32,000 nt of DNA, taken from NCBI GenBank assembly GCA_001430755.1, contig CP013062.1, forward strand, positions 360,001 through 392,000, read 5' to 3'. Position numbers and translations under genes: made by a program. This DNA is from Candidatus Peribacter riflensis (GTDB lineage: Bacteria; Patescibacteriota; Gracilibacteria; Peribacterales; Peribacteraceae). Below, piece by piece: positions 4,571 through 28,276 of this stretch; the stretch's first letter is position 1, and each line of letters opens with the position of its first letter. Below the pieces are notes generated by a model. The model did not search any database. It saw only the letters and a list, made by a program, of their open reading frames with translations, and had not been told where the DNA came from.

Positions 4571-6955
4571 TTACCGTGCCAGAACTTCGAAGGTGAGCAT
4601 GGCGCGTTCTTCACCTGATTGGGCTGTGAGCTGGTGCCTTCCCGGCTGCGGCTGCCATTTGATGCGGAAATCCGGCGCCTGTGCTGCCCCGATCTTCTTG
4701 CCATCCACGTACCAATCCATCGTCCGGATAGCGGGTGAGGCGTGAGCTTCGAAGATCACCTGTTCCTGCGCGTCCGGAATGAGCGGATCCAACAGATAGC
4801 TCTCGTTCGGTTGAGGCGAGATGATTTCGATCCACGATGCGGAACCGGGCGCGGAAGAATCGGAGGTGGGGGATTCATCCCCGCAGAGAGGGGAAACGCG
4901 CGTGGGCGGAAGAGGCCATCCCTGCTCGCGCCCCCATTTTTCGGTGTCCTTTGGAAACACGGCGAGCCCTTTCTTATCAACAAATTCCTGATCACAATAT
5001 TTGTTCGAAAGCAGTCCGTTCCGTCGATCAATCTCGAAGAGTCGGTACAGGTCATCCGGCTCTTTCGGTTCCGTTCCTGCGATGAACCACTCCTCGATCG
5101 TGTGGGGGCAGAGCTCCGTCGGCAGCTTACCCGAGAGCCGGCAAATCGTGACCTGCTTCAAGCCTTCGGGCTGAGCGAAATCGCTCATGGGCAGATTCTT
5201 TGTGGCTGCCAATACAACATCGTGGAAGATCGGTCCTGCTCCTGTGACGCCGGAAGTCTCGCGCATGGGCGAGTTGTCGGCGTTGCCCACCCACACGCCC
5301 ACGATGCGATCGGGCGTGAAGCCCACAGTCCAGTTATCGCGGGAGTTCCTCGTCGTGCCCGTCTTGGCCGCCACGGGGAAATCGAAGGTGAGCGGGCCGC
5401 CTTCGCCAAATTCCGAAAGGCGCGCAGAGGCATCACTCAGGATATCGGTGATGAGCCAGGCCACTTTGGGATCGAGAATGTGCGCTCCATTTTGCGTGGG
5501 ATCGGAGAGGAGAGTGCGTATGGGGAGTGTCTCGCCGCCGCGCGGAAAGATCGCGAAGGCTTGGGCGAGCTCGAGTAAGCGCACCTCTGCGTCGCCGAGT
5601 GTGAGGGCGAGGCCGTAATGCTCAGGGGTTTTCGTGAGGGTACTCAGTCCTGCTGAGCGCAGGAACGAGAGCAGACTGTCGATTCCCACGCGCTCCGCCA
5701 CGCGCACGGCCGCAATATTGTAGGAGTTGGCCAGTGCCTCGCGGTACCGCACGAGTCCGTGCTCGAGGTAGTCGTAGTTCCTGGGAGTGTAGGGTGTACC
5801 CTCCCGCGTCAGAAACTGCACGGCGGTATCGGCTACGGTGGTCGCTGCGGTGTCGCCCCGTGCAAGCGCGAGTGCGTAGGTGAAGGGCTTCAAGGCGGAC
5901 CCGGACTGGCGGGCGGCAAGGACGCTATTGACGGCTCCGTCGTGCTCCTCATCGAAGTAATCCGCCGATCCCACCATCGCGAGTATGTCACCGTTCTTGG
6001 CATCGAGCACGACGACGGCAGCGGAGGTAACGTTCTTCTCCTTCAGTTCCTCCAATTTGCGTTCGATGATGCGCTCCACTGCGGTCTGGAGCGTGAGGTC
6101 GAGCGTCGTCGTGACAGTCGGAGACTGCAGATCCTCCGGTCGCTCGTTGAGGAGCCACATCACAAAGTGCGGCGCGCGAATGGCCGTTTGATCTGCGGTC
6201 AGTGCTATAGGCTCCGATTCTATTTGCTCGATTTGGGCTTCTGTCAGGGCTCCCTGGTCACGCATGGCCGTGAGCACGCGTCCCTGTCGTTCCCGGGCTG
6301 CCGTGAAATTGATGAAGGGATCGAGGGCGGAAGGGGATTGTGGCAGTCCTGCGAGCAGGGTGCATTCCGCGGTCGAGAGCTCATGCACGGACTTGCCGAA
6401 GAATGTTCTCGTCGCCGCAGACAGGCCGTAGGCCCGGTGACCGAAGTATGCGGTGTTGAGGTACCGCTCCAAGATGTCATCTTTGGTGAGTGTCTGCTCC
6501 AGTTTGAGGGCGAACAGGGCCTCCAGCACTTTGGAGGAGAGCGTGCGCTCGCGGGTATTCAAGGTGATGCGAGCGAGCTGCTGGGTGATGGTGGAGCCGC
6601 CCGAGACAATGCGGCCGGCCGACAGGTTCTGCCACAGCGCCCGCGCAATCCCTTTGATGCTCACTCCGGGATGGGTGTAGAAGTTGTGGTCTTCAATGGC
6701 GAGCAGGGCTGAGATGCAGGGTTTTGGAATCGCGTTGAGCCCTATCCACTGCTGTGAACCGTGTGTTGGCTTGCGAACCTCGTAGAGCTCCTGTCCGCTT
6801 CGTTCGAGCAGGAGCACGGAGGTGGATTTGCGGTCGAGGAATCGCTCTGGAAGCGGCAGGAGGATGGCACCTGCGAGCGCAAGGAGTGGAAAGAGCCAGA
6901 GGAGGTGGCGACTGCGGGGCAGCATGCAGATACGGGTGATCTTGTTGCCGCGCAT
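4571..6955 (-). CDS. pbpC: bifunctional penicillin-binding protein, PBP1C type (GT51 glycosyltransferase + transpeptidase + BiPBP_C-like C-terminal domain)
   Basis: It has an N-terminal TM helix. GT51 motifs are EDHNFYTHPG and GGSTITQQLAR. Transpeptidase motifs are SALK (SxxK), SYN (SxN) and KTGT. There is an extra ~90-aa C-terminal beta-rich domain. The start codon overlaps the A2M stop (TAATG), with AGGAG just upstream. Confidence 0.88.
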   Translation of the reverse strand: MRGNKITRICMLPRSRHLLWLFPLLALAGAILLPLPERFLDRKSTSVLLLERSGQELYEVRKPTHGSQQWIGLNAIPKPCISALLAIEDHNFYTHPGVSIKGIARALWQNLSAGRIVSGGSTITQQLARITLNTRERTLSSKVLEALFALKLEQTLTKDDILERYLNTAYFGHRAYGLSAATRTFFGKSVHELSTAECTLLAGLPQSPSALDPFINFTAARERQGRVLTAMRDQGALTEAQIEQIESEPIALTADQTAIRAPHFVMWLLNERPEDLQSPTVTTTLDLTLQTAVERIIERKLEELKEKNVTSAAVVVLDAKNGDILAMVGSADYFDEEHDGAVNSVLAARQSGSALKPFTYALALARGDTAATTVADTAVQFLTREGTPYTPRNYDYLEHGLVRYREALANSYNIAAVRVAERVGIDSLLSFLRSAGLSTLTKTPEHYGLALTLGDAEVRLLELAQAFAIFPRGGETLPIRTLLSDPTQNGAHILDPKVAWLITDILSDASARLSEFGEGGPLTFDFPVAAKTGTTRNSRDNWTVGFTPDRIVGVWVGNADNSPMRETSGVTGAGPIFHDVVLAATKNLPMSDFAQPEGLKQVTICRLSGKLPTELCPHTIEEWFIAGTEPKEPDDLYRLFEIDRRNGLLSNKYCDQEFVDKKGLAVFPKDTEKWGREQGWPLPPTRVSPLCGDESPTSDSSAPGSASWIEIISPQPNESYLLDPLIPDAQEQVIFEAHASPAIRTMDWYVDGKKIGAAQAPDFRIKWQPQPGRHQLTAQSGEERAMLTFEVLAR

Positions 6956-9900
6956 TACTCCTGAATCGTCACGATCTTCCCGGCTGTCTGACCGAAGACC
7001 TCGGGGAAGTACATCTGGAAGACATGGGCGGGGCGCTCGTGGAAGGTGCCCGGCGTTGTCGCGCGCACCAGGTAGGTCAGTTGGTACACGCCGGCTGGCA
7101 ACTCATCGGCGAAGGCGAAGAACATGTCATCCCTCAGCTCCCGATGTGAGAAACGCCAGAGGCCCTTCTGCCAGTAGTTCTCATCCCACATGCGGGTGGT
7201 GTCATCTTCAAAGAGCGTCTGCTGTGCGGTCTTCAGGTGCAGGTCGATCGGTTCGAAACCTGCGGGGAACGGGCTCTCGACGGCGACGAATTGGCGGTCT
7301 TCCGGCACGGTGATCGTGAGGGTCACGCGGTAGCTGGAACCCACGGTGAGCGTTTTCTGCTCGCCCGGCAGCGGCTCGATCGATCGCAGCACGCTGATGC
7401 CCTCTTCGGCGGGCGGGAGCGTATCTGCTGTGTAGAAGTACGAGAGTACTGCGTCGTAGTACAGGCGTCCGGTTCCCTGCTTGCCGATCTTTAGTGTGGT
7501 TTCTTCGCCGCGCAGGAGCTCATCGAGTGTCAGCTTTACCTCTTTGCGCGAGAGCACGTTCTGCTTCGTGACCTTCCAGTCGAGGATCTGCGTCCCGTCC
7601 ATTTCCACCCCAGCGGTGAAGTCGGCATTGAGCTCCTTCGTTTGTTCCAGGTATTCGATGAAAGCAAGCAGAACCGAGACGGTGGACTGAGTTGTATCCC
7701 AGTGTCCGTCCTTCCGGATCTGGAGCAGGTAGCGCACGGCATTCGGAATCAGGGCATTCGTCGGGTCGATGCGCAACATTGCCTGCAGGACCAGCGCGGA
7801 CGTGCGGTCATTGGTCTGCATGAGAGAACCGAAGCGCGCGATTTCCTCTTCCTCGAAGTGCGTGCCGCGGCCGTCCACCTTTGCGGACCGCAGAATCTCG
7901 GTGAGGATGTCTCGCGCTTTGCTCTTGGATTTGGCCCGGTCGAAGGCCATGGCAAGCTGTGCCTTCGCGAACAGCGGGAGTTTGGCACGCTGCTCATCGA
8001 GGTTAGTCAGCAGGTTGACGTCCACTTTCCCGGTCTCTGCAAGCACGAACAAGATGTGCGCGCGGGTGGCCAGATCCAGTGACGTATCGGGGTTCGAAAC
8101 GCGCAGGGTGGCATCGAGGTACTGTTGCGTGCGTGCGATCACGCCGTCATCGACGGTGAATCCGCTGCCGCGGATCAGGTGGAGCGCGTGGAGCACATAG
8201 GCGCTCAGGGCGGGGAAACTTCGCTCACTCTCCTGCCAGTAGCCGAATCCTCCGTCACCGCGCTGGAAGGTGTACAGGCGGGTGAGTCCTGTGGTGACCA
8301 TATCACTCAGCTTTTTCTTTTCGACGAAATGGAACGCATCGAAGCCCTGCAGGCGCGCGAGGACGACAGAAGGCAGCACGCTTGAGAGCGTCTGTTCCGC
8401 GCAGCCGTACGGGTACGTCGCAAGGTACTGGAGCCCTCCCGGAAGGTAGGTGGCGAGCGAAGGTGACACGGTCACGGAGAGTGATCCGTCACGCGCATCT
8501 TTTTCGCTGGGCACCAGCACACTCTCGGTGACGAGATCTTCGGTGATGCCGGTCGTCGCGACGCTCTGCGGCGTGCCGTAAGTGAGCACCGGGATAGATT
8601 CCTCCACCTCATCGCGTGCGCCTTCCTGCTCGGCGAGGAACGTGAAGGTGGCTTTGTTTGTGCGGGCGATGGTCACGGGGAATTCCACTTTCTTCTGTTC
8701 GCCGGCTGCCAGCGTCACTTCTTTAGTCTGCGGGCCGCTCGATGTGAAGCCGCTCCCGGTTAGAGAAATTGAGAAGGTTGCGGATGTGTCGAGGAAGTTC
8801 CCCACGATCGCACCCAGGATCACGCGGTCGCCGACCACGACAAAGCGCGGACGCACGGGGCGCACGATCACGCGCTTCGTCTCGATGACGGTCTCTTCCG
8901 CGGCGCCGAACAGCGAGGCTTTGGTCTGGCCGACCGCGAGCAGGTGCCACGTCGTCAGGTTATCCGGCAGGGTGAACGAAACCTGCGCCTCGCCCTTTTC
9001 ATCCGTGAGGATGGTCGGGTTCCAGTAGGCCGTGTCTTTGAAATTGCCGCGTTTCTTCGCTTCCAGCTCCGCGCCGCCTCCGCCTTTGGAGCCGGGCTTG
9101 TAGCGATCAATGAGGTACGTGAGCATTTCGGCGGTGAGCACGCCCACGGGCCGTTCGCCGTAGAAGTTTTCGACAAGATCGGGCAGTGCGAATCCGGTCA
9201 GCGCGAGCACGCTCATATCCACGACGCCTAATGAGATTTCCGCTTGAACTGGGGCTCCCTGCCAATCGGTGGCCGAGAGATTCACGGTCACTTTCTCTCC
9301 GGGGAGGTACTTTTCTTTATCTGCCTGTACATTCACAGTGAGTCGCTTTCGCGAGGTCTCGATGGGCAGCTTGGCATAACCGATGCGGAAAGCCGGTGCA
9401 CCGGTATCGAGTCCGTTTTCGTCGAAGGTTTCGCCGATGCGCGGTTTCATGATCACCACCGAGACGTAGATCGTCGGGGCGAGGTCTTCGGTGATGGGCA
9501 CGGTGATCTTCTGCGCCGAACTCTCGATCGTGATGACTTCCTTGCGGATCACCTGTTCGCGCTCCAGGGTGACGAGGGCTTTCACGTTCTCGCCCTGGAA
9601 GGGGGATTTGATGAGGAGTGTGGCCGTGTCTCCGATGCGGTACTCCGGTTTATCCGGCACGATGTCGATGCGATTGTTGTTCTCGTGGGCCCAGTTTACG
9701 AAGGTCGAAGACCAGGCGTAGAGGCTGGTTGCGGACTTCGCCTCGCGTCCGTCCTGGTCCTCAGCCACAGCGACGACGCGGAATTCTCCACCCTGATCGG
9801 GGCGGACCGTGGCCTTTGCCTTGCCCTTCTCATCCGTCGTGACCTTGGTGGCCCGGATGAACGTGTCTTCCGGCGTGTTGTCGTAGTAGTACTCGCCGTC

Positions 9901-12891
9901 CACACCCTTCTTCTTGATCGAGTTCCACTTGCGGGCGAAGAGATTCAGCGTGACGGTGGTATGCGGCAGAGGCGATCCGTCGGGCTGCACGGTGATCACC
10001 GCCATCTGCGCATCGGTTCCGGGGGCGACGGCGTAATCTTCCGGCCGGATGCCGACGTAGACATTGGCCTTGTGCACGGGCACCGAGACGCGGTTACTCA
10101 CCACCTGATTGTTCGGATCGGTGATATCCGCCTCCACGGTGAGGATCTGGCTCGCGGCCTTATCCGCGATAGTCGCGGGGACGGTGATGGTCAGTCTGCC
10201 TGCGGCATCCAGACGACCTTCACCTTCCGCCAGCAGCTTTGTCTCGCGCTCGCAATTGCGCCAGCACCACGCGTCCTCGAGACCGAAGGAATACCACCCG
10301 TCGCGAACCTTGTTAAAGAAGTAGTCCGTCGTTTGCGCGCGCCACGTGATGTTCGCCCCGTTCATCGGCGCTCCGAAATAATAGGCTCCCTCAATTGTCA
10401 CCCTGACCAAATCGTCTTGGAAGTACTCTTCGCGCTCCGCGGTCAGTTCCACGCGGTACTCGGGCTTGCGGTAGGCGAGCACTTCGAACGAGCCGAAGGC
10501 GTCTCCGTAGGGGGTATCCTGAAATCCCGCAGAGATCTGGTACGTGCCGAGAGCGGCCTTTGCATCGATGGGGAAGGAATCGGCGAAGCTGCCGAATGCT
10601 GTGAGGGGGAGAGACTTGCTCAGCACCTGGTTGCCCTGCGCATCGGTGACGGTGACGGTCACCGAACGGTTCTGTTTGGGCACGGAGAGCATTCCGCTCG
10701 TATTCCGGACGCGCAGGATTCCCTTGAAGTGCACCGTATCCCCCGTGCGGTATACCGGACGCTCGGTGTAGAGAGTGGAGTGGATGCGCTCCGAGCGGTC
10801 CGAGGGACCCCAGAAATCGGTGTAGGAGCCGAACATATCGGGACGGATGCCGTCATTCCAGCGACTCGAAACCAGGGCGAAGTCGCTTCCCTTCTCGGCT
10901 GTGACCCAGAATTCCGGTTCCCATTCGTTCATGGGCGTTACGAACTGTTTGAGGTCGAGTGATGTTTCAAAAAATCCCTCCTGATCCGTGAGGCCTGTCA
11001 CGGGGGTGTCGCCGGTGAGGGAGTGGAACGCGATGGCCGCGCCGGAGACCGGTGCGCCGGTGCGCAGATCTGTGGCCCACACGAGGGCGCGATTGCCCGA
11101 GTACTTGAGCGTGAGGGCCGTATTCGTCAGGAGGAAGGTCTGGGTGTGATGTGGCTCTTCGTCCCCCGATCCTTTTTCGTTCGGCGCGCGTACCTGAAGT
11201 GTGTAGAGGCCGGACCGCAGGGTCTGCCCCGTCTCCTTGGCCACATCGAGCGCGTACAGATCCCACGTATCCTTCTTTGCTGTCGGCGTGTAAGTCCACG
11301 TATGGAGCGGAGTGCGGTTCGCCGGGAGTGTGTTCCACGTCTGCTGTGTTCCGCGGAAAGCCAAAAAGTCCTGCAGACTCACCGACGAGAGTTCAGATTC
11401 CACCTTCGTCACGTTCACGAATTGCAGGCGGTAGACGGGCGGCTTTTCGCGCTCGAAAATGCCGAATTCCCCTTTCGATTCCAGCAGGATCTGCGGGGGG
11501 AGGGGATCGGTCTTGAACGAGAAGGTGCGGGGTTCTAAGAGCTTCTGCCCGAAGGTGTCGGCCAGCCCCGTTCCCAGTGTGACGGTGTACTGCGTGGATG
11601 GGGAGAGCGGCGGGTAGGCCGCCAGCTCGCGGTCATCCGCCCACGAAGAAACATTCCATTCGGTCTCATTCCATTTTTCGACAGAAGGGGTGATGGTGAT
11701 CTGATTCTTGAGGGAATCCTCCGACAACGGATTATTGAACCGGAAGATGACGCGTCCGTATTCATAGTGGGATGTTTCGAGCAGGAGCGGCCCGACTGTC
11801 GAGAAATCGAGTGTGAAGCCCGTCTCGTTGCCCAGCGTTCCCCGTGCTCCTTTGAGTCCCGGCGCGATGGTCAGGGTGTAGCGCGAAGAGAAGGTGAGAG
11901 GAGTTGCGGGCATCACGACGAGTGTCTTCTTGTCGAGGACGGGACGCTCGTCCACTTCCACAGTCCCGAAAGAAACGGAACGGATCGCAACAGCCTCCGG
12001 CTTGCCGTTCTCGCCTGTGCGGATCAGCGAGAGGAATTCCTTTGCGCTATCGGCCCGCATTTCCTGGTTGAAGGAGAGCGAGAGTACGGTCGTTGGTCCG
12101 GCGAGCGCGTACCCTTGGGCCGGCTCCGTCGACACGATCTGCGGGCGAACGGTTTCGAAGGTCCACGAGAAATCCTCCTCGGTGCGGTCGCCCGAGACGG
12201 TCGGGATCCCCTTGGGGATGCTTACGGTGTAGCGCGTGCCTGGCAGAAGCCCTTTCTCGGGGATGAATTCCACGGCGACGGTCGAGAGCCATCTCCACCG
12301 GCCCGCGGTGTCGGGGGTGACAGTCACCGGAAACTGGGCGATGCGCGCGTTTGCGGCTTCACCCTGCACCTGCGTGAGAGGGATGATCGGCCGGTCGAAG
12401 ATGATCGTGATTTTGGAATTCTCTGCGATGTTCTGCGCGCCGACTTCCGGAATGCGCGCGGCGATCGTGGGCGGACCGGCGACGACGAAGGTGAAGGCCA
12501 TCTCCTGCCCCAGGGTCACGCCGTCCGATTTTTCGGCACGGGCATCGAGGCGGAAGGTGAGGGTCTTGCCGGCGGGGAGTGCTGCCGAAGGGCGGAACGT
12601 GAGTGTTTCATCTTCCCATTCCCATGTGCCCGTGATGCCCTCGGGCGGTGCCATGTTCTCTTCGACGCTTCCGTGATCCATGAGAGAGGGGAAGCTGAAG
12701 CGGAGCACCGACGAAGCGGATACCTTCTGCCGGAGTGCGAAATCCATCGTCGTCTGTCCGCTCGGAAACCGGACCGTGCCCGTCGCGAAGAGCGCGATGA
12801 GCGTGATGGAGACGACGAGCACCGTCGCCAATGCGAGCGGGCGGCGGCTGATCACTGCGGAGACAAAAGAGAAACGCTCAGAGAGAGACAT
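6955..12891 (-). CDS. yfhM: bacterial alpha-2-macroglobulin family protein (YfhM/ECAM-like), N-terminal TM anchor, thioester-containing
   Basis: The protein is 1978 aa. YPYGCAEQTLSSVLP is the CxEQ thioester motif. The body is a long series of Ig-like/MG-like beta domains, and the size and pbpC linkage fit the family. The N-terminus (RRPLALATVLVVSITLIALFATG) is a TM helix with no lipobox Cys. Confidence 0.9.
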   Translation of the reverse strand: MSLSERFSFVSAVISRRPLALATVLVVSITLIALFATGTVRFPSGQTTMDFALRQKVSASSVLRFSFPSLMDHGSVEENMAPPEGITGTWEWEDETLTFRPSAALPAGKTLTFRLDARAEKSDGVTLGQEMAFTFVVAGPPTIAARIPEVGAQNIAENSKITIIFDRPIIPLTQVQGEAANARIAQFPVTVTPDTAGRWRWLSTVAVEFIPEKGLLPGTRYTVSIPKGIPTVSGDRTEEDFSWTFETVRPQIVSTEPAQGYALAGPTTVLSLSFNQEMRADSAKEFLSLIRTGENGKPEAVAIRSVSFGTVEVDERPVLDKKTLVVMPATPLTFSSRYTLTIAPGLKGARGTLGNETGFTLDFSTVGPLLLETSHYEYGRVIFRFNNPLSEDSLKNQITITPSVEKWNETEWNVSSWADDRELAAYPPLSPSTQYTVTLGTGLADTFGQKLLEPRTFSFKTDPLPPQILLESKGEFGIFEREKPPVYRLQFVNVTKVESELSSVSLQDFLAFRGTQQTWNTLPANRTPLHTWTYTPTAKKDTWDLYALDVAKETGQTLRSGLYTLQVRAPNEKGSGDEEPHHTQTFLLTNTALTLKYSGNRALVWATDLRTGAPVSGAAIAFHSLTGDTPVTGLTDQEGFFETSLDLKQFVTPMNEWEPEFWVTAEKGSDFALVSSRWNDGIRPDMFGSYTDFWGPSDRSERIHSTLYTERPVYRTGDTVHFKGILRVRNTSGMLSVPKQNRSVTVTVTDAQGNQVLSKSLPLTAFGSFADSFPIDAKAALGTYQISAGFQDTPYGDAFGSFEVLAYRKPEYRVELTAEREEYFQDDLVRVTIEGAYYFGAPMNGANITWRAQTTDYFFNKVRDGWYSFGLEDAWCWRNCERETKLLAEGEGRLDAAGRLTITVPATIADKAASQILTVEADITDPNNQVVSNRVSVPVHKANVYVGIRPEDYAVAPGTDAQMAVITVQPDGSPLPHTTVTLNLFARKWNSIKKKGVDGEYYYDNTPEDTFIRATKVTTDEKGKAKATVRPDQGGEFRVVAVAEDQDGREAKSATSLYAWSSTFVNWAHENNNRIDIVPDKPEYRIGDTATLLIKSPFQGENVKALVTLEREQVIRKEVITIESSAQKITVPITEDLAPTIYVSVVIMKPRIGETFDENGLDTGAPAFRIGYAKLPIETSRKRLTVNVQADKEKYLPGEKVTVNLSATDWQGAPVQAEISLGVVDMSVLALTGFALPDLVENFYGERPVGVLTAEMLTYLIDRYKPGSKGGGGAELEAKKRGNFKDTAYWNPTILTDEKGEAQVSFTLPDNLTTWHLLAVGQTKASLFGAAEETVIETKRVIVRPVRPRFVVVGDRVILGAIVGNFLDTSATFSISLTGSGFTSSGPQTKEVTLAAGEQKKVEFPVTIARTNKATFTFLAEQEGARDEVEESIPVLTYGTPQSVATTGITEDLVTESVLVPSEKDARDGSLSVTVSPSLATYLPGGLQYLATYPYGCAEQTLSSVLPSVVLARLQGFDAFHFVEKKKLSDMVTTGLTRLYTFQRGDGGFGYWQESERSFPALSAYVLHALHLIRGSGFTVDDGVIARTQQYLDATLRVSNPDTSLDLATRAHILFVLAETGKVDVNLLTNLDEQRAKLPLFAKAQLAMAFDRAKSKSKARDILTEILRSAKVDGRGTHFEEEEIARFGSLMQTNDRTSALVLQAMLRIDPTNALIPNAVRYLLQIRKDGHWDTTQSTVSVLLAFIEYLEQTKELNADFTAGVEMDGTQILDWKVTKQNVLSRKEVKLTLDELLRGEETTLKIGKQGTGRLYYDAVLSYFYTADTLPPAEEGISVLRSIEPLPGEQKTLTVGSSYRVTLTITVPEDRQFVAVESPFPAGFEPIDLHLKTAQQTLFEDDTTRMWDENYWQKGLWRFSHRELRDDMFFAFADELPAGVYQLTYLVRATTPGTFHERPAHVFQMYFPEVFGQTAGKIVTIQE
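8392..8403 (-). other. thioester motif codons C-A-E-Q of the A2M
   Basis: The reverse complement of 8392-8403 reads TGC GCG GAA CAG within ACG TAC CCG TAC GGC TGC GCG GAA CAG. Confidence 0.85.
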
Positions 12892-13665: not shown

Positions 13666-13706
13666 GTCCCGAGTCGTTGCATTTTGCGCGGCTCGGGACA
13701 GTTTTT
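13666..13706 (+). terminator. stem-loop GTCCCGAG (13666-13673) / CTCGGGAC (13692-13699) followed by a TTTTT run
   Basis: A perfect 8-bp GC-rich stem with an 18-nt loop, and a T5 run at 13702-13706, located 21 nt after the stop of the 13178 CDS. It sits between convergent genes. Confidence 0.45.
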
Positions 13707-15618
13707 AAAGGCCTCGCATCTGACGCAGCGCCGACTGCGCCTGCGCATTCTTCGGATCGTACTCAAGGATCGCCTCAAACTCAGCGGCAGCCTCCTCCAG
13801 GGAGCGTTTGTTGTAGAGCAGGATCCCAAGGTTCAGGCGGGCTGCGGTAAATTTCGGCTGCAGCCGTACCGCCTCGCGGTAGGCAGTTTCCGCCTCTTCG
13901 GTGCGATCGAGCTTCGTGAGGGCGACCCCCAGATTGAAGTGCGCCTGCGGGAAGAAGGGATTGAAGTCGAGGGCCGTGCGGTACGCCGCGACGCCGGGTT
14001 CCAGCCGTCCCATGCCGACGAGCAGCGCGCCCAGGTTCAGGTGTGCGGGGGCGAAGTCGGGAGCAGCCAGGATGGCTTTTCTGTAGAACTGTTCAGCCTC
14101 CGCGGTGTTGCCCTGCTGTCCGGCGACGATGCCGAGCCCCAGGAGCGCGTAGACGTTGCCCGGATTCAAGCGCAATGCTTCTTCGAAGGTCGAGCGCGCC
14201 GTTGTCAGGTCTCCCTGTTCGCGCTCGGCGGAGGCGAGGTTGCTCAGAATCTTCGACTCGGAGCGTGCGAGTGCGGATCCCGGGCGCCCCTCTCTCTTCA
14301 GAATGGCGAGAGCTTCGCGGTACGCAGTGATAGCCTTGGCAGCGTCGCCGCGATAGCGCTCCACGTTCCCCAGGTTCACGTGGGCGACGTACGACTGCGG
14401 CGACACGCGGAGCGCCTGCCGAAAGAGTGTTTCGGTGTTCTTCCACGTCTGTGCCTGCAGTGCGGCGACCACCGCCAGACCGGCGAGCAGCAGGCAGGCG
14501 GCGGTGATGCACGGGCGTTTCAGGTGCTCGCTGCACAGGCGCGCGAGTCCGAGAGCGAAGAGAAAGAAGATCCCGATGCTCGGCACGTAGGCGTAGCGGT
14601 CGGAGGCGAAGTAGAACGTGTCGCCCTTGGCGAAGTTGAGCAGGGTGGGGGAGACGGTCACGAAGAAGAAGCCGATGCCGAAAACGATGTTGCGGGTCCA
14701 CCGGATGAGGATGAGGGAGGCGAGGGTGAGGAGGACGAAGATGGCGAGAGAAACGGCGATGTCGGGACGCGCGAGCGTGACGGCTCCGCTGAACGGATAC
14801 AGCACCGAGAGATCGACGGGGGCGAAGATTTTTTCCAGATAGAACATGGCTCCCCGGGGGGCCATCAGCAGTTTCTCGGCGAGCGTGGAGGAGCCGAGCA
14901 CCTGCGTCTTCCCGATCCAGGCAATGATGGCGAAGAGAGCGGAGAGGAGAAAGAAGGGAATCTTCTCGGCAAGTGCGCGCCTCGTGAACGGCCGGTTTTG
15001 CACAAAGTCCAAGAGGAGCAGTACGACTGGCAGCGTGAGGACGGTCACTTTGGCGAGCAATCCCAGCAGAAAGGTGAGCAGGCTCCACCAGTAGGCCCGG
15101 CGGTTCCCGCCCCGGTAGGTCAGATAAGCGATGAGGCTTGCGAGGAAGAAGAAGGTGGAGAGCACGTCTTTGCGGGCACTCGCCCAGGCGACGGCCTCGG
15201 TGTGGAGCGGGTGCACCGCAAACAGAAGACCGCCGAAGAGGGCGATCCAGCTCTTGCGCGTGAGCAGGAGCATCAGCCATGCGACGAGCAGAGCATTGCA
15301 GGTGTGCCACAGCAGATTCTGGATGTGGTAGATGGTGGGGGTCGTCCCGCCGATCAGGTAGTCTAACTGGTAGCTCAGGAACGTAAGCGGGATATACAAC
15401 TCCGGATCGTAGCTCGTGAAGATGGTCCAGAGGGTTCTGGGTGTGATGGACCGGATGGCGGGATTCTCGTAGATGAGCAGTCCGTCATCGAACCGCACGA
15501 AGGCATTGGTCAGCGAAGCGCCGTAGACGAGGAACGTCACGACGAAGAAGCCGCCGATGATCCACCAGCGCACGGAGCGGGAGGGCAGGGGAGTTGGTGC
15601 TGTAGACGAGACATGCAC
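13705..15618 (-). CDS. multi-pass membrane GT-C-type glycosyltransferase (PMT/TMTC-like) fused to C-terminal TPR repeats
   Basis: It has a GTG start. The N-terminal ~390 aa are highly hydrophobic (about 10+ TM segments), with a first-loop acidic motif FVRFDDGLLIYENPAI typical of TMTC/PMT_2-like proteins. The C-terminal ~240 aa are tandem 34-aa TPRs (e.g. AHVNLGNVERYRGDAAKAITAYREAL, AHLNLGALLVGMGRLEPGVAAYRTALDFNP). Confidence 0.75.
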   Translation of the reverse strand: MHVSSTAPTPLPSRSVRWWIIGGFFVVTFLVYGASLTNAFVRFDDGLLIYENPAIRSITPRTLWTIFTSYDPELYIPLTFLSYQLDYLIGGTTPTIYHIQNLLWHTCNALLVAWLMLLLTRKSWIALFGGLLFAVHPLHTEAVAWASARKDVLSTFFFLASLIAYLTYRGGNRRAYWWSLLTFLLGLLAKVTVLTLPVVLLLLDFVQNRPFTRRALAEKIPFFLLSALFAIIAWIGKTQVLGSSTLAEKLLMAPRGAMFYLEKIFAPVDLSVLYPFSGAVTLARPDIAVSLAIFVLLTLASLILIRWTRNIVFGIGFFFVTVSPTLLNFAKGDTFYFASDRYAYVPSIGIFFLFALGLARLCSEHLKRPCITAACLLLAGLAVVAALQAQTWKNTETLFRQALRVSPQSYVAHVNLGNVERYRGDAAKAITAYREALAILKREGRPGSALARSESKILSNLASAEREQGDLTTARSTFEEALRLNPGNVYALLGLGIVAGQQGNTAEAEQFYRKAILAAPDFAPAHLNLGALLVGMGRLEPGVAAYRTALDFNPFFPQAHFNLGVALTKLDRTEEAETAYREAVRLQPKFTAARLNLGILLYNKRSLEEAAAEFEAILEYDPKNAQAQSALRQMRGL

Positions 15619-15681
15619 GACCGTACTCTAGAACGCCCACCGGGCGTGCGGAAGGCGGAACCAATTGTACAAAAAATGTGT

Positions 15682-16746
15682 TCAGTTTGTCGGTCTCCGC
15701 AATGCCCTGTGCGTGGCGAAGAAGAGCAGGCCAAATGTTCCGAGGATCGTGACCCACAGTCCGGGACCGGTGGAGGGCTGCGCAATCGGCCGTGGAGCGC
15801 CGCCATGCAGTACGCTTTTCGATGACGAGGAGCCGCTGCCGGGGGCGACGGGGTTGCCCTGTTCGTCGAAGGGGTGCGCGGTGGTCGCATTCACACGGTA
15901 GGGATTGACGGGCAGTGCGGCGCTCGGTCTAGGTGCCGATGTGTTGGCCGAGGACGCTGCGCCTGAGCCGAAGGGGTTGAGAGCAGAAAAGTCGTCTACG
16001 TCGTCATCCAGAGGCGGCAGGTTTCCAGCTGACAGGAGTGAGGTGAGGTCCACAAATTCATTCCCTGCGGTCGGGGATGGATCCACCGGTATCCCGCCAG
16101 ATGGTGCGCTCATGAACGAGGCAGCCGAAGAAGCCGGGGCGGATGATGCCGGCGCGGAGCCTGTTCCCCCTCCGGTGAACGGAGCCGCCTGTGCCAGGTT
16201 CTGTCCGATGGCTGTCTTTGCGGTCGGACGTTTTCCCGGCTGCGCGGCGAGAACGGTGATGCTGCCTTCCATACCCTGTGCACTGATGCTGTAGACCGAG
16301 TAGGTGCCCGGTGCGAAGGCATCGGTGATGGTCAGGTGCGCAGTTTCACCCGGGGCGATGGCTGGCGTGACGAAGCACTCCCGGTCTTGTGTGCACAGCG
16401 TGTCAGACTGCAGCACGTGCGAACGGGCGGACTCATTGGTCCATGTCAGGTCGCTGCCCGGGGTGACGGTGATGGTCTGTGGTGAGAAGCCATCCGAAGT
16501 AATGCGGATGACGGTCGGCGTTTCTCCACTGTCCATGCCGAAGAAAAAGGTGAGCCCGACGCTGATCGCGAGCAGCATGCCGGCGACCGCAGCCGGCTGA
16601 CGCGAGAGGCGTCTCACTCGCGGAGGCGGCTTCTGCGACGGAGGAATCTCTTCGCTCTTGGGTTTTTCCACGATGTGAATCGGCAGCGACTGCTCGCCGG
16701 GCGCATCTGATTCCGTCGTCTGCCAGTTGGGATGGATGTCTGTCAT
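15682..16746 (-). CDS. membrane/surface protein: N-terminal TM, cupredoxin-like domain, low-complexity Ala/Ser/Pro linker, C-terminal sorting signal
   Basis: ATGA overlap with the upstream gene. The TM helix is AAVAGMLLAISVGLTFFFG. VIRITSDGFSPQTITVTPGSDLTWTNESARSHVLQSD...GTYSVYS...GSITV resembles the Cupredoxin_1/EfeO-type fold. The C-terminus reads QPSTG-PGLWVTILGTFGLLFFATH-RALRR. Confidence 0.7.
   Translation of the reverse strand: MTDIHPNWQTTESDAPGEQSLPIHIVEKPKSEEIPPSQKPPPRVRRLSRQPAAVAGMLLAISVGLTFFFGMDSGETPTVIRITSDGFSPQTITVTPGSDLTWTNESARSHVLQSDTLCTQDRECFVTPAIAPGETAHLTITDAFAPGTYSVYSISAQGMEGSITVLAAQPGKRPTAKTAIGQNLAQAAPFTGGGTGSAPASSAPASSAASFMSAPSGGIPVDPSPTAGNEFVDLTSLLSAGNLPPLDDDVDDFSALNPFGSGAASSANTSAPRPSAALPVNPYRVNATTAHPFDEQGNPVAPGSGSSSSKSVLHGGAPRPIAQPSTGPGLWVTILGTFGLLFFATHRALRRPTN
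15685..15780 (-). other. C-terminal cell-wall-sorting-like signal: QPSTG + hydrophobic helix + RALRRPTN
   Basis: Tripartite layout (PxTG motif, ~19 hydrophobic residues, basic tail) read from the translation. Codon positions were verified against the DNA. Confidence 0.55.
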
Positions 16747-18377
16747 CGGGAGCGCGGAGGAGCCGTGAGCGCGACAGCCTGTCGCCGCGAGGCGATGGCG
16801 GTTCCGGTCACTGCAGAGAGCGTCAGCAGGAGAGCGATCACCGAGGGCATGCCCGTTTCGCCGGGCACCGTGACCGGCTTGCGCGTTGCCATCAGATCAC
16901 CGGTGAGGGGAGAGGTCGAGGTCTTGGGATTTCCCACTTCCACGGCCACTTCCTGGCTGAAGGCCGACTCTTCATCGGTCAGGCTCAGCGCCCGGATCGC
17001 CACGAAGTACGTGGTCTTTTCCGGCAGGTTGCGGATCGCCATGCTCGTGCTCTCGGCCGAGACGGTCTTGCGCTGGATGTAGCGGCCGGAGGTCGTGCCA
17101 TAGTAGAGGTTGTAGGCTTTCAGCTGGGAAGAGGCCAGCGGATCCCATGCGACGTAGAGGCTGGTGCCCTCTGTCGTAATGCGCACCGAGCGCACCTGCA
17201 GGAGCGCAAAGGCCGACTGGCCTTGGGGCAGTGAGACGAAGGATGCCGCAGACGAAGCGGCGCCACCGCAGCGGTTGCTCTGGCAGACCCCGCTCAAACA
17301 CTGTGTTGCGGTATTGCAGGCTCCGCCATCCTCCACTTTGAGGAAATCGCCGCGGCAGATACCGCTGCTGCACAGTCCTCCCTTACAGGCGGCATGGTCC
17401 GTGCAGGCAGAGCCGTCGGGGAGCTGGGGTGCGTTGGAGCTCTGTGCGGACGAACTTCCTGATCCTGTGAGAGCACTCGTACTCGATGCAGCTTCCCTCG
17501 TGCAGGTGATCGAACAACCATCGCCAGCGAGGAAGTTTCCGTCGTCACACTGTTCGCCGACTTCCACAAGCCCGTTCCCGCAAATGGGTCCGGCGGCGGA
17601 CGAGGCAGCACTTGAGACAGCAGACGAGAGGGAGCTTCCGCTTCCGGCACTCTTGCTTGTGCTGCTCGCGCTGGAACCGCTGCCGGAGTGTACGGATGAC
17701 GCACTCGATCCGGATCCTGTGCTCGTCTGGCTGCCTGCCGACGAGGATGAAGCGGCTGCAAAGGCCACAAGCAGCGATCCCGGGTTCTGTGTGAGGATGT
17801 CTTCGGCTGTGCCGTCTGTTTTCTTCGCGACGACACGCGTGTGGCCGGTGGGCTGCACATCGTAGAAGCTGAGCACGTCGGTCTGGGTCGTGGGAATGGA
17901 TTTCACTTTGAGTTGGATGCGCGCCACGACGATTTCCTCATCCGCAGGTTCCTCATTCGCCCTTGCGGAGAGGTCGATCTTGATGAGGCCGTCTGAGGTG
18001 GAGAAATTGATTTCTCCGGGTGCGGCGGTCGGGAGAGCTGTTCCCGCCGTGATGCCCATACCTTCCAGCACGGCCGGGTTGTACTGAATCCAGGATCGGA
18101 CGCGGGCAATCTTCTTCTGATCCGGATTGATGGCGATCAGATCCATATGGAGGATGTCGTCTTTCTCCATCGCGGGTGTGCGCAGGGTTTCGGGGTCTTC
18201 CACGGCGAACGTGGGGCAGGGGGTCGTGCCCTGTGCGCAGTGCGGACGCAGGAAGAGGGATGTCGTAGCCGTTTCCTCTGCGATGAAGCGCCCAGGAATG
18301 AGAACGACCGAGAGCAGCACCGGGAGGGCCAGGATTTTGATGATGGTCAGCCGACGGGAGATGGCGGTGTGTTTCAT
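16743..18377 (-). CDS. secreted surface protein: signal/TM, cohesin-like domain, Ser-rich linker, CGNG..CDDGN..DGC cysteine repeat, Cys-knot-like repeats, FN3 domain, C-terminal sorting signal
   Basis: - aa ~55-205: ...IARVRSWIQYNPAVLEGMGITAG...GLIKIDLSARANEEPADEEIVVARIQLKVKS...DVLSFYD fits the cohesin pattern (x-YDP-x-xLE..., G-I-x-I, LAxIxFKV).
- aa 207-263: poly-Ser/Gly/Ala linker.
- ICGNGLVEVGEQCDDGNFLAGDGCSITC is a Myxococcus-type Cys-rich repeat (DUF4215-like).
- aa ~392-482: SLYVAWDP...YNLYYGT...TYFVAIRAL is an FN3 domain.
- The C-terminus reads VPGETG-MPSVIALLLTLSAVTGTAIAS-RRQ. Confidence 0.8.
   Translation of the reverse strand: MKHTAISRRLTIIKILALPVLLSVVLIPGRFIAEETATTSLFLRPHCAQGTTPCPTFAVEDPETLRTPAMEKDDILHMDLIAINPDQKKIARVRSWIQYNPAVLEGMGITAGTALPTAAPGEINFSTSDGLIKIDLSARANEEPADEEIVVARIQLKVKSIPTTQTDVLSFYDVQPTGHTRVVAKKTDGTAEDILTQNPGSLLVAFAAASSSSAGSQTSTGSGSSASSVHSGSGSSASSTSKSAGSGSSLSSAVSSAASSAAGPICGNGLVEVGEQCDDGNFLAGDGCSITCTREAASSTSALTGSGSSSAQSSNAPQLPDGSACTDHAACKGGLCSSGICRGDFLKVEDGGACNTATQCLSGVCQSNRCGGAASSAASFVSLPQGQSAFALLQVRSVRITTEGTSLYVAWDPLASSQLKAYNLYYGTTSGRYIQRKTVSAESTSMAIRNLPEKTTYFVAIRALSLTDEESAFSQEVAVEVGNPKTSTSPLTGDLMATRKPVTVPGETGMPSVIALLLTLSAVTGTAIASRRQAVALTAPPRSR
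16746..16865 (-). other. C-terminal sorting-like signal: PGETG + hydrophobic helix + RRQ... tail (a second SPLTG lies 12 aa upstream)
   Basis: Read from the translation. The codons for VPGETGMP were verified at 16845-16868. Confidence 0.5.
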
Positions 18378-18394
18378 GGGGGAGAATCGGGTAC

Positions 18395-18709
18395 TTACAG
18401 CATCGTGCGGAGCAGGCGCAGAGCGTCATCAACCGTGAGCATGCCATCCCCATTGGGATCCATGCGCAGCGCTTCCGTGGTGGCTTGTTCGTATCCCTGC
18501 ACCACCTCGAGAAGTGAAATGACGTCCTGCACATCCACTCTGCCGTCGCCGGTGAGGTCGCCTGTGCGACTCACGGAACCTGCCTCAATGAGGGCGATGG
18601 GCTGCACTTCACCGGCACTCTGAATGCCGATGAGGAACGAAGCCGCAACGCAGATCCCACTGAAGAGGAGTGCCCGCAGGAACTGCCGTGAACGGAAAGA
18701 AATGTGCAT
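18395..18709 (-). CDS. small membrane-tethered/secreted dockerin-only protein (104 aa)
   Basis: It has an N-terminal hydrophobic segment (LRALLFSGICVAASFLIGI). This is followed by two EF-hand-like dockerin repeats, GDLTGDGRVDVQDVISLLEVVQG and MDPNGDGMLTVDDALRLLR (nt 18407-18562). There is no other domain. Confidence 0.7.
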   Translation of the reverse strand: MHISFRSRQFLRALLFSGICVAASFLIGIQSAGEVQPIALIEAGSVSRTGDLTGDGRVDVQDVISLLEVVQGYEQATTEALRMDPNGDGMLTVDDALRLLRTML

Positions 18710-18717
18710 TTCGTATT

Positions 18718-18723
18718 ATTATA
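18718..18723 (-). promoter_or_regulatory. perfect -10 hexamer TATAAT (minus strand), 8 nt upstream of the dockerin-gene ATG
   Basis: The minus strand reads ...gaaatgatcTATAATaatacgaaATG. The -35 is weak (TAGAGC at 18-nt spacing). This geometry implies a leaderless or near-leaderless transcript. Confidence 0.3.
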
Positions 18724-18873: not shown

Positions 18874-19878
18874 ATGGAGAATGTCTTCCTCTTCACGGGC
18901 GAAAACGAATTCACACTCCGCCAGGAGCTTCTGCGCTGGATACGGGAGTTTCGCGAGAAGCACGGGGAGGAGAATCTTTCGCGCCTCTCGGCTGCAGGTC
19001 TCGCGCCTTCGGCATTCCTCAACGAAGTCGCGGCGGCACCCTTCATTGCGGAGCGGCGCTTGGTGGTGGTGGATGGTATTCCCTCATTCGCGGCCGAGGA
19101 GGGTTCTGCGGGCAAGCGGAAAGGGGCGAAAGGGTCGCTGGGTATGCAGGCGGTGCTGCACGAGGTGCATCCACAGGTCATCGTGCTCTTCGTCGCGCCC
19201 AAGCCGGACCGCCGTCTCGCTACGACCAAAGAGCTGCTCGAATGTGCGACCGTACGGACCTTCGCTCCCCTGCAGGGGGATGCGCTCCTGCGCTGGATGC
19301 AGGAGGAGTTCCGTCAGCGGGGGACTGCCGCAGGGCCGGAGGTGCAGACACTTCTCCTCTCGCTGGTCGGAGAGGATCAGCAGGTGCTCTCACAGGAGAT
19401 CGAGAAACTCTCACTCGCAGCGGGCGGTCAACCGCTGACCAGGGCTCACATCGATGCTCTTGTCCTGCCTTCCGCCGAGCAGACGATCTGGCATCTGCTA
19501 GATCTCTTGGGCGAGGGGCATCCGGGTGAGGCGGTCGCGTACTGTCGGCAGCTCATGCGTCGGGGTGAGAGTGCACAGGGAATCTGGGCGATCTTTCTCT
19601 GGATTGTCACGAGCTTCGCCGCGGTGACGGCTGCGGTGCAGGAGGGCACCACGAGTATTCAGGGCATCATGGAGGCGACGGGGGTGAAGTTCGGCGCGGC
19701 ACGATCACTCCTCCCCCTTGCCCGCACGTGCCGGCGCGAGGCGCTCTGCGATCTCCTCAACCGCGTCACCGAGGCGGATATCCGCCTGAAGACCGGAGTC
19801 TTCAAATCTGGGGGGGACTCTGAAGAGGAGCTGGCCGCACTCCTCGACCGTTGCCTGCTCAGCTTTCCCACGCGGTGA
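18874..19878 (+). CDS. holA: DNA polymerase III subunit delta
   Basis: The size is 334 aa. The N-terminus VFLFTGENEFTLRQELLRWIREF..., then FIAERRLVVV, and the C-terminal helical domain layout are typical of HolA. The call rests on pattern memory only. Confidence 0.7.
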   Translation: MENVFLFTGENEFTLRQELLRWIREFREKHGEENLSRLSAAGLAPSAFLNEVAAAPFIAERRLVVVDGIPSFAAEEGSAGKRKGAKGSLGMQAVLHEVHPQVIVLFVAPKPDRRLATTKELLECATVRTFAPLQGDALLRWMQEEFRQRGTAAGPEVQTLLLSLVGEDQQVLSQEIEKLSLAAGGQPLTRAHIDALVLPSAEQTIWHLLDLLGEGHPGEAVAYCRQLMRRGESAQGIWAIFLWIVTSFAAVTAAVQEGTTSIQGIMEATGVKFGAARSLLPLARTCRREALCDLLNRVTEADIRLKTGVFKSGGDSEEELAALLDRCLLSFPTR

Positions 19879-19886
19879 AGCACTCA

Positions 19887-20336
19887 CTAGATCTTTCCCT
19901 CAATGCGCCCGAGCAGGCTCTGCGTCTGCTCATCTTCTTCCTGCTTGGCTGCCTGTTCCGTCTGTGAGCGCTGCGTGCGGCGGCGGCGGCGCTCCTCGTC
20001 CACCTGTTCGAGCAGCTGGGTTTCGCCGATGCGCTCGATCTCTTTGGCGTACTTGCGGTCGATGGCGGCGAGCTGCTGCTTCTCGTTCGACAGAATGTCT
20101 TTGAGATTCTGGATCTGCTCGGGTGTCATGACCGGCAGGATGTTCACCCAGTACTGCCGCTCCTCATCATTCATGCTCTCGGACTGAAGAATCAGCCCGA
20201 TCAACTCAGGAAACTTCTTCTTCAGATCATCCGGGATCTGGATGCCGGTGGATGTTTTTGAATCGGCCACGTGACCAGAGTACGCGGAATCTCGGATCAT
20301 TTGCAATTTCATGATTGGCGATTTGCGATTTTGCAT
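19887..20336 (-). CDS. hypothetical protein with charged coiled-coil C-terminus (149 aa; start may be a downstream Met)
   Basis: AGGTGA lies 12 nt upstream of the first ATG. The LQSESMNDEERQYWVNILPVMTPEQIQNLKDIL motif resembles small conserved hypothetical proteins I recall from uncultivated (CPR-type) bacteria. I cannot verify that here. Confidence 0.6.
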   Translation of the reverse strand: MQNRKSPIMKLQMIRDSAYSGHVADSKTSTGIQIPDDLKKKFPELIGLILQSESMNDEERQYWVNILPVMTPEQIQNLKDILSNEKQQLAAIDRKYAKEIERIGETQLLEQVDEERRRRRTQRSQTEQAAKQEEDEQTQSLLGRIEGKI

Positions 20337-28158: not shown

Positions 28159-28276
28159 CGTGATGAGGAGAATGTGTGTAATACGTGTATTATACAATAA
28201 TTTTAATAATCTCGCCATATAGGAAAAGTGCCAATGACAGTGATTTCCGACGCTCTCCTCGTTATGCGGTTAGAGA

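Follow-up and report, generated by a model that had tools for sequence, protein, structure and literature searches.

Gene content and conservation of the locus

Cohesin–dockerin pairs are best known as the glue that holds cellulosomes together; the domains themselves are widespread, and their other roles are largely unexplored. Here we describe a group of genes specifying a stand-alone dockerin, a protein with a single cohesin, and a cupredoxin-like protein in a 32,000-nucleotide stretch of the chromosome of Candidatus Peribacter riflensis (contig CP013062.1, positions 360,001 to 392,000; hereafter the window), a groundwater bacterium with a small genome of 1.25 Mb that belongs to the Peregrinibacteria, within the Candidate Phyla Radiation (CPR). 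Four open reading frames (ORFs), which we call g1 to g4 from upstream to downstream, all lie on the minus strand and are packed together: g1 and g2 are separated by a 17-nt gap, the start of g3 overlaps the stop of g2 in a 4-nt ATGA, and a further gap of 63 nt separates g3 from g4. The ORF list returned the same coordinates and spacings for this four-gene layout as a first-pass annotation that had been made from the letters of the window. A scan for promoters and terminators did not rise above shuffled expectation, and no terminator was found between any of the four genes.

We scanned one genome per species, found a relative of g2 in 211 genomes, and analyzed the best 80 loci using hidden Markov model searches of all of their ORFs. 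Each genome has a single such locus, and essentially all of the genomes are from Peribacteria. Of the 80 loci, 76 keep the order g1-g2-g3 and the remaining four are cut by contig ends, so this order is not a chance pattern. In these loci g1 and g2 share a strand and are spaced by ~17–25 nt, and the 4-nt overlap between g2 and g3 is kept in 32 of 78. The pairing of a cohesin gene with a dockerin gene, for which the first-pass annotation had suggested synteny in relatives as a check, is therefore conserved; its four-gene operon, however, stands only in part, as g4 adjoins the other genes in just 9 of the 80 loci. Because g4 is absent near most loci, the conserved unit is a three-gene operon, g1-g2-g3, that is Peribacteria-wide and single-copy. 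(Two contigs with the same Peribacteria-type trio, those of loci L036 and L038, are labeled Gracilibacteria and Kiritimatiellales, which probably reflects mis-binning or mislabeling of contigs from metagenome-assembled genomes.)

The g1 protein consists of a basic N-terminus, a hydrophobic segment of 17 residues, the motif GIQSAG followed directly by EVQPIALIEAGS, and two F-hand Ca-binding repeats. Type I dockerins comprise two duplicated segments of ~22 residues, each made up of a 12-residue Ca2+-binding loop and then a helix, and this two-repeat pattern is found in g1: both loops are 12 residues long, carry D, N or T at positions 1, 3, 5, 9 and 12, and lead into a helix, reading DLTGDGRVDVQD...LLEVVQG and DPNGDGMLTVDD...LRLLRT in the window. 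Against the Pfam family Dockerin_1 (PF00404) g1 scored 20.9 bits, just under the cutoff of 22.9, with a match that spans profile positions 2–56 of 57 (aa 50–103); 35 of 42 g1 relatives matched the same family at E ≤ 0.01 (best 1e-6). When a profile of the g1 family was compared with the PDB, the top matches were the dockerins 2y3n_B (8.5e-5) and 6kgc_B (1.8e-4), with EF-hand proteins interleaved. The invariant columns of the family are D51, G56, D62, D84, P85, T92 and D95. The two canonical loops, the near-full-length though sub-cutoff match and the matches of the relatives thus bear out the earlier reading of g1 as a dockerin, as well as its reading as one without a catalytic or cargo domain: the 48 homologues are 91–127 aa long, all are from Peregrinibacteria, and no second domain was found in any of them, the g1 ORFs of 82 loci being likewise in this size range and free of any further domain. 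At recognition positions 10/11 and 17/18, repeat 1 of g1 has V-Q and L-E and repeat 2 has V-D and L-R; because these positions differ in charge between the repeats, analogy with other dockerins suggests that g1 would bind in a single rather than a dual mode. In two g1 orthologues (L062 5669-6004 and L071 5627-5953) the first Ca-binding loop is lost and the second repeat kept, with g2 and g3 still adjoining.

The N-terminal domain of g2 matched the Pfam family Cohesin (PF00963) with 27.7 bits, above the cutoff of 24.1, over aa 82–184. A profile built from aa 40–210 of g2 and the same region of 49 homologues (alignment A2) matched, among solved structures, the cohesins 1g1k, 2vn5 (E ~1e-4), 4ums and 1aoh, and nothing else significantly. 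An AlphaFold2 (AF2) model of aa 40–210 had a predicted local distance difference test score (pLDDT) of 96.9 and a predicted template modeling score of 0.91, and it shows the nine-strand jelly-roll fold of cohesins. In a Foldseek search of the PDB with this model, all of the top 50 matches were cohesins, of types I, II and III (best E 2.8e-6, probability 1.00; template modeling score up to 0.75 on target length), the non-cellulosomal cohesins 2xdh and 2vo8 among them. The first-pass annotation had called this domain a cohesin and had named an unrelated Ig- or CARDB-like fold of aa 55–205 as the outcome that would undo the call; the structure search looked for such a fold and returned cohesins instead. 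Residues R94, W96, P120, G121, E122, F125, F171 and D173 are near-invariant and, to judge from the order of the strands in the model, would lie on predicted strands 3, 5 and 8; in solved complexes, strands 8-3-6-5 of the cohesin form the sheet that binds the dockerin.

Beyond the cohesin, the Ser-rich linker, Cys-rich repeats and fibronectin type III (fn3) domain described earlier for g2 were all recovered. The linker is followed by a repeat that matched DUF4215 (30.2 bits, cutoff 27), the NCBIfam model TIGR02232 myxo_disulf_rpt (45.9 bits) and also a pappalysin model; more Cys-rich modules lie beyond it, as far as ~aa 375, and the fn3 domain, in which the invariant columns of alignment A3 cluster, is the best-conserved part of the family. 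The g2 orthologues have clear AxA-type signal peptide sites, and the full-length homologues (n = 76) are all from Peregrinibacteria/Peribacteraceae where the source names them. In sum, g2 is a surface protein whose N-terminal cohesin is set off from the cell on a stalk made up of the Ser-rich linker, the Cys-rich modules and the fn3 domain.

Sorting signals, export and neighboring genes

Both g2 and g3 end in sorting signals, as had been noted before, and these signals are real and conserved in homologues. Among the 76 homologues of g2 the C-terminus reads [VI]PGE[TS]G, then a hydrophobic segment (SAxxGT), then RRQ, with G509 invariant; the Pro of this motif is one position off that of LPXTG. 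Among g3 orthologues QPxTG predominates (with QPxSG and xTxTG as variants), and it is followed by a transmembrane (TM) segment and basic residues. Because of this combination of QPxTG, hydrophobic segment and basic tail, g3 is, as judged by its sequence, a canonical LPXTG-type substrate, with g2 a variant of the type. PEP-CTERM, PGF-CTERM and exosortase or archaeosortase signals were considered for VPGETG and rejected, as no NCBIfam model of these matched and neither an exosortase nor an archaeosortase is encoded in the window, which has a sortase instead. The window sortase lies 10 kb from the operon and outside it, carries the catalytic motif TLMTC and an N-terminal extension of ~240 aa ahead of the catalytic domain, and matched TIGR01076 with 50.3 bits (cutoff 39.35). 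It may represent an unclassified CPR type of sortase that matches the unusual PGETG and QPxTG motifs, and it is the enzyme likely to process the signals of g2 and g3.

The features described earlier for g3, namely an N-terminal TM segment, a cupredoxin-like domain and a C-terminal sorting signal, were all three found. The domain matched Copper-bind with 21.4 bits (cutoff 21.2) and Cupredoxin_1 with 24.4 bits (cutoff 27), and a profile of the central g3 domain from 30 orthologues (A6) matched plastocyanin and amicyanin at E ~1e-10 across the whole domain; on the strength of these profile matches it can be regarded as a true cupredoxin homologue. Unlike plastocyanin and amicyanin, however, g3 lacks the copper-ligand Cys and usually the second His: in an alignment to plastocyanin 3bqv the His-Cys-His-Met set of copper ligands is incomplete, the Cys and second His positions being unconserved, and the site reads YSVYSISAQGMEG in the window. 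We therefore rejected an active blue-copper role. Given the missing ligands and the placement of the domain between a TM segment and a sortase signal, its role is probably structural or in binding, and not in electron transfer. On the cytoplasmic side of the TM segment g3 has a strongly conserved motif, LHPHWxxTDD...VPV (HPxW in 73 of 83 orthologues), followed by SRxPAA and then by the TM segment, which has no obvious peptidase site; a conserved NPYxV motif lies in the long low-complexity linker ahead of the sorting signal. With an uncleaved N-terminal TM segment and a sortase signal, g3 may itself bridge membrane and wall. One orthologue (AYFHGF...GVYGYHCTIESHVKGEF; probably L039 7421-8293) still has both Cys and His at the positions of the copper site, a hint that the family descends from a true blue-copper protein; in the other domain sequences that we read there is no Cys at this position, and in locus L005 the cupredoxin domain is absent altogether.

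The first-pass annotation had described the g1 dockerin as itself tethered to the membrane. This is not established, as the hydrophobic N-terminus fits a cleavable signal peptide at least as well. Across 79 species loci the modal length of the hydrophobic run is 17 residues, with runs of 19–22 in a minority; the run ends in G28 (79/79), I, any residue, S/T31 (79/79), A/V32 and G33 (74/79), after which come E/D34 (66/79), V35, any residue and P37. A helix breaker at –6 with small residues at –3 and –1 is the classical pattern for signal peptidase I, and the motif G-I-x-[ST]-[AV]-G/[ED]-V (the slash marking the candidate cleavage site) fits the –3/–1 rule in 75 of the 79 orthologues. Because of this pattern of Gly at –6, Ser/Thr at –3 and Gly at –1, cleavage and release of a mature dockerin of ~71 aa appears somewhat more likely than retention in the membrane. 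The segment is conserved unusually strictly (F25, G28 and A43 are near-invariant), which leaves room for it to have another role as well.

An uncleaved g1 is central to the arrangement that the first-pass annotation had put forward, in which g1 acts as a signal anchor and a g2 fixed to the wall bends back to dock its cohesin onto the dockerin, tying the wall to the membrane. We consider this arrangement very unlikely. The near-invariance of F25 and G28, in a juxtamembrane motif more conserved than the c-region of a typical signal peptide, would be in keeping with it, as would the longer hydrophobic runs of some orthologues; but most orthologues have the short run and the peptidase-like pattern, the cohesin would sit at the distal tip of a long wall-attached stalk whereas the dockerin would be only ~20 residues off the membrane, and g3, with its conserved N-terminal TM segment and sortase signal, is the better candidate for a membrane-to-wall tether.

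In g4, TPR families matched strongly at aa ~380–637. The membrane domain (aa 1–373) had no Pfam match at E ≤ 10, no match to DUF1736 and no sequence match to solved structures. The AF2 model (pLDDT 83) has the GT-C glycosyltransferase membrane fold, and the top Foldseek matches were STT3, ArnT, AglB, PglB, AftD, EmbB/C and DPY19 (probability 0.75–1.0, E only to 4e-3). PMT_2 matched 3 of 19 aligned relatives (best 6.7e-9) and did not match the window protein itself; the homologues of the membrane domain number more than 2000, some of them with PMT_2 and some named protein O-mannosyl-transferase by JGI. In a motif of the first extracytoplasmic loop, FVRFDD, residues F40, V41, D44 and D45 are invariant. 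The earlier call of a TMTC-like GT-C/TPR glycosyltransferase is thus borne out: with a GT-C fold, C-terminal TPRs and this acidic first-loop motif, g4 can fairly be described as TMTC/PMT-like, and it is a putative PMT_2/TMTC-like protein O-glycosyltransferase. Like TMTC1-4 and the PMT_2 O-mannosyltransferases, g4 combines a multi-pass GT-C domain, an acidic DD in the first loop and C-terminal TPRs; unlike them, it has a membrane domain without a Pfam or DUF1736 match and a lineage-specific linkage to the trio. (Note that public gene callers start g4 at an ATG 15 codons downstream of the GTG, giving 622 aa.) Apart from the nine genomes in which it adjoins g3, g4 lies 0.75–2.1 kb downstream in 17 of the 80 and within ~5 kb of the trio it is missing from 54. 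Paralogues are found elsewhere within the same genomes, and this, together with the rarity of adjacency, makes the link of g4 to the operon weak. In one of the 17 loci, L043, the sole one inspected, a VIT1/CCC1-family membrane protein unrelated to the operon lies between g3 and g4 (8495-9244).

The window is identical in sequence to contigs of Candidatus Peribacter riflensis/Peribacteraceae from Rifle aquifer samples and from GCA_003500185.1. The region is chromosomal, and the neighbors of the operon are housekeeping and envelope genes (Table 1), further window genes being greA, carB, mnmA, and genes for an SLH-domain protein and an EamA transporter. The only Rfam matches in the window were two tRNAs. 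There are no glycoside hydrolases among the window ORFs scanned, and the absence of a glycoside hydrolase context, which the first-pass annotation had stressed, holds to that extent. The alpha-2-macroglobulin (A2M), of 1978 aa, has MG domains, a bait region and a thioester motif CAEQ, and is followed directly, with a shared gene boundary, by the PBP1C-type protein; A2M and PBP1c form a classic gene pair, here in a CPR genome. Between holA and greA lies an ORF (19887-20336, minus strand; 149 aa) that has no family match and specifies a charged, coiled-coil-like protein kept in 68 of the 80 loci. An ORF at 1237-2424 (plus strand; 395 aa) has no Pfam match, contains AAGGDEFALLLDG, a sequence similar to the diguanylate cyclase signature GGDEF, and ends in a coiled-coil-like tail. 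In the ORF at 3436-4533 (minus strand) a nucleotide-kinase-like domain (AAA_17/AAA_18) is joined to a dCMP/cytidine deaminase domain, a fusion that also occurs in locus L006. A secreted protein of 627 aa (26335-28218, minus strand) has a DUF11 domain, three DUF4215/myxo_disulf_rpt Cys-rich repeats and Ser-rich linkers like those of g2, and is without a C-terminal sorting signal. The Ca. Peribacter genome paper notes cysteine-rich extracellular proteins, of which the 627-aa protein is one, and does not mention cohesins or dockerins; it also reports a sortase A and a small number of glycoside hydrolases for Ca. P. riflensis (PMC4736985).

Table 1. Genes, domains and signals at the locus (positions are those of the window)
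Feature	Position	Strand	Description
g1	18395..18709	-	104-aa stand-alone mini-dockerin; ORF and Dockerin_1 match
g1 dockerin module, aa 50-103	18401..18562	-	loop 1 DLTGDGRVDVQD and helix, loop 2 DPNGDGMLTVDD and helix
g2	16743..18377	-	544 aa; signal peptide, cohesin, Ser-rich linker, DUF4215/Cys-rich, fn3, sorting signal
g2 cohesin domain, aa ~59-205	17763..18203	-	Pfam, AF2, Foldseek
g2 DUF4215/myxo_disulf_rpt Cys-rich repeat, aa 264-296	17490..17588	-	Pfam, NCBIfam
g2 fn3, aa ~390-482	16932..17210	-	Pfam fn3 29.5 bits, cutoff 25
g2 sorting signal	16746..16868	-	VPGETG, hydrophobic segment (SAVTGT), RRQ
g3	15682..16746	-	354 aa; N-terminal TM, cupredoxin-like domain, low-complexity linker, QPSTG sorting signal
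g3 cupredoxin-like domain, aa 72-165	16252..16533	-	Copper-bind match; copper-ligand Cys absent
g3 sorting signal	15685..15780	-	QPSTG, hydrophobic segment, HRALRR
g4	13705..15618	-	637 aa from GTG; GT-C-fold membrane domain and C-terminal TPR domain
g4 GT-C membrane domain, aa 1-373	14500-15618	-	AF2 and Foldseek
Sortase	28484-29740	-	418 aa; Pfam Sortase 82.7 bits
Alpha-2-macroglobulin	6955-12891	-	neighbor gene
PBP1C partner of alpha-2-macroglobulin	4571-6955	-	neighbor gene
holA	18874-19878	+	upstream neighbor

Proposed pairing of the dockerin with the cohesin

Throughout the 1.08 Mb of Peribacteria DNA around the loci there is exactly one dockerin ORF and one cohesin ORF per locus. A profile confined to the g1-type dockerin was also searched against 1.84 billion representatives and gave 246 matches at E ≤ 1e-10. 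The top scorers were tandem multi-dockerin proteins; the single-domain matches among the best 150 were almost all g1-like in size, at 86–146 aa; and of ten larger matches that we looked up, the two with names were multi-dockerin proteins from Clostridia and Oscillospiraceae. This search, which is not a census of the Peribacter genome, gave no sign of g1-type dockerins on enzymes.

Beyond the domain architecture and its conservation, which the analyses above show, we infer how the trio might be exported, processed, glycosylated and assembled, and to what end. The explanation that we favor, and to which we assign about an even chance, is that the trio is a surface operon in which a sortase-anchored g2 stalk carries the g1 dockerin and serves surface organization or attachment, not degradation. 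Under this proposal g2 would be exported and its signal peptide removed, and the window sortase would cleave the PGETG signal of g2 and the QPSTG signal of g3 and link both proteins to peptidoglycan, leaving a wall-linked g2 stalk with the cohesin at its distal tip. The g1 protein would be exported and would more likely be released by signal peptidase than kept in the membrane; its dockerin would then dock onto the g2 cohesin, presumably in a Ca2+-dependent manner, so that the stalk is capped by a small dockerin and exposes at its tip the conserved peptide (EVxP...) from the N-terminus of g1. As a second sortase substrate, g3 may tether the membrane to the wall. Where it is present (in the P. 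riflensis clade), the GT-C/TPR enzyme would O-glycosylate the Ser-rich linkers of g2 and g3, which are plausible acceptors. The resulting complex would function in surface organization or attachment, plausibly to other cells or to a host, in what is an episymbiont-like lineage, and not in the degradation of polysaccharides.

Several observations weigh against this proposal. The Dockerin_1 score of g1 is under the Pfam cutoff and EF-hand families score about equally on g1; no NCBIfam sorting-signal model matched g2, whose PGETG is not a canonical LPXTG; the window sortase stays below every class-specific NCBIfam cutoff (the best being class C, with 58 versus 160 bits); and the link of g4 to the operon is, as described above, a weak one. 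The count of one dockerin and one cohesin per locus applies to the 1.08 Mb that were scanned, and further dockerin proteins may be encoded elsewhere in the genome. The covariation between g1 and the cohesin is unspecific: using mutual information with average product correction on 77 non-redundant g1/g2 pairs, the top value for g1 and the cohesin was 0.34, against a maximum of 0.22 for shuffled pairings, but the controls reached 0.39 (g1 with fn3) and 0.46 (g1 with g3), and because these controls are equal or higher we regard the covariation as phylogenetic. Finally, the upstream neighbors of the trio are about as syntenic as the trio itself (holA in 76 of the 80 loci, the ORF at 19887-20336 in 68, greA in 68 and carB in 59), whereas downstream A2M is next to the trio in 11 of the 80 only. 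With the synteny of housekeeping genes just as well conserved, adjacency is by itself weak evidence, and the conserved adjacency of the trio partly reflects general collinearity of these genomes; the case for an operon lies in the common strand of g1, g2 and g3, in their very small gaps and overlaps, and in the secretory nature of all three proteins.

An alternative is that there is no cognate pairing at all, g1 being a small secreted or membrane-bound Ca2+-binding protein of the EF-hand type and its adjacency to g2 a collinearity inherited in a reduced genome. In its favor, EF-hand_1 and EF-hand_6 are the families that score like Dockerin_1 on g1, EF-hand Ca2+-binding proteins appear between the dockerins in the profile search of the PDB, the synteny of holA, greA and carB matches that of the trio, and covariation does not exceed that of the controls. 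We nevertheless judge this alternative unlikely. The match of g1 runs over almost the entire dockerin profile and takes in two loop-helix units, and the segment before loop 1 (SVSRTG) varies among orthologues, so that g1 reads from its sequence as having an F-hand with no E-helix; moreover, g1 and g2 lie closely spaced on one strand beside the translationally coupled g2 and g3, and the sole cohesin and the sole dockerin of each locus sit side by side.

A further, quite improbable version of events would make the trio a dedicated attachment organelle of Peribacteria, or a self-polymerizing fiber ligated through g1, in which the cargo is a peptide or the scaffold itself rather than an enzyme. 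As an organelle, the g2 cohesin would capture the secreted 70-aa g1, and the conserved N-terminal peptide of g1 may be a ligand for the surface of a partner or host. As a fiber, the N-terminus that cleavage would expose on g1 (G/E-V-x-P) may act as the nucleophile in a sortase reaction that joins g1 to g2 or g3 at the C-terminus of the latter; such a product, in which a cohesin and a dockerin occupy opposite ends, may be able to self-polymerize in a pilus-like manner.

Relation to known cohesin–dockerin systems

The closest parallels to g2 are ScaE of Ruminococcus flavefaciens and Sca2 of Ruminococcus bromii, both of which are anchored by sortase, have a single cohesin and recruit partners that bear dockerins (PMC4611034). 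They resemble g2 in that a signal peptide and a single N-terminal cohesin are followed by a linker and, at the C-terminus, by a signal of the sortase type, with a sortase gene in the same genome, and Sca2 is close to g2 in length (534 versus 544 aa; PMC4611034). They differ from g2 in their partners, which bear dockerins on scaffoldins, enzymes and peptidases, whereas the only candidate partner seen for g2 is the cargo-less protein of ~100 aa encoded immediately upstream. In addition, g2 has DUF4215 Cys repeats and an fn3 domain that ScaE and Sca2 lack, carries PGETG in place of LPXTG, and is found in a CPR bacterium with few glycoside hydrolases.

This resemblance, that is, a single cohesin joined to a sortase signal, raises the possibility that g2 is an ordinary anchoring scaffoldin that recruits dockerin-bearing enzymes or adhesins encoded elsewhere, with g1 as a competitor, a regulator or a placeholder cap. 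Sca2 binds the dockerins of amylases and peptidases (PMC4611034), and among the weak matches to g2 there is a DUF4215 protein with a Dockerin_1 domain (P0081). We hold this possibility to be fairly unlikely, since the 1.08 Mb around the Peribacteria loci contain no second dockerin or cohesin ORF, since g1-type dockerins in the single-domain matches sit almost entirely on proteins of 86–146 aa, with the named larger ones being clostridial and Oscillospiraceae multi-dockerins, and since Ca. P. riflensis has few glycoside hydrolases (PMC4736985). The surface operon, with g1 as the dedicated partner of g2, remains the reading that we favor.

When set against cellulosomes, in which dockerins are borne by enzymes and scaffoldins have multiple cohesins, the trio stands apart in that g1 carries no cargo in any of 48 homologues, g2 has one cohesin and the window ORFs that were scanned include no glycoside hydrolase. 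Cohesin and dockerin modules from outside of a cellulose-degrading context are nearer to it: 2xdh, a cohesin of Archaeoglobus fulgidus, and 2vo8, one from a toxin complex of Clostridium perfringens, match the fold of the g2 cohesin. Known modules of this kind sit on larger proteins, such as hydrolases, toxins and multi-domain proteins. Such non-cellulosomal cohesins and dockerins are documented, for example in the 2009 survey of Peer et al. as it is cited in PMC10066038. The first-pass annotation's suggestion of an "undescribed use of the module" was therefore overstated, both non-cellulosomal modules and ScaE and Sca2 being already known. In the literature that we searched, we did not find a class-wide operon that pairs a stand-alone mini-dockerin with a sortase-anchored cohesin. 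What appears to be new is that a minimal cargo-less dockerin has a dedicated gene beside that of the cohesin presumed to be its partner, that this pairing is conserved throughout a class of CPR bacteria poor in glycoside hydrolases, and that the pair is associated with a sortase substrate that has a copper-less cupredoxin domain.

Parts of the cellulosome assembly machinery thus appear to have been reused here for a purpose other than the breakdown of plant fiber. The retention of so minimal a pair as an operon throughout a CPR class whose genomes are reduced and contain few glycoside hydrolases speaks for an essential role at the surface rather than for biomass degradation. The sortase signals fit the view that Peregrinibacteria have a Gram-positive-like, glycosylated envelope, as do the copper-less cupredoxin protein and the GT-C enzymes of PMT-like type. 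If g1 and g2 do bind one another, the pair would be a naturally minimal, orthogonal cohesin–dockerin pair for the protein-engineering toolbox, and would offer a simple, experimentally tractable way of learning how these bacteria, which are uncultured and probably depend on partners, build or use their surface.

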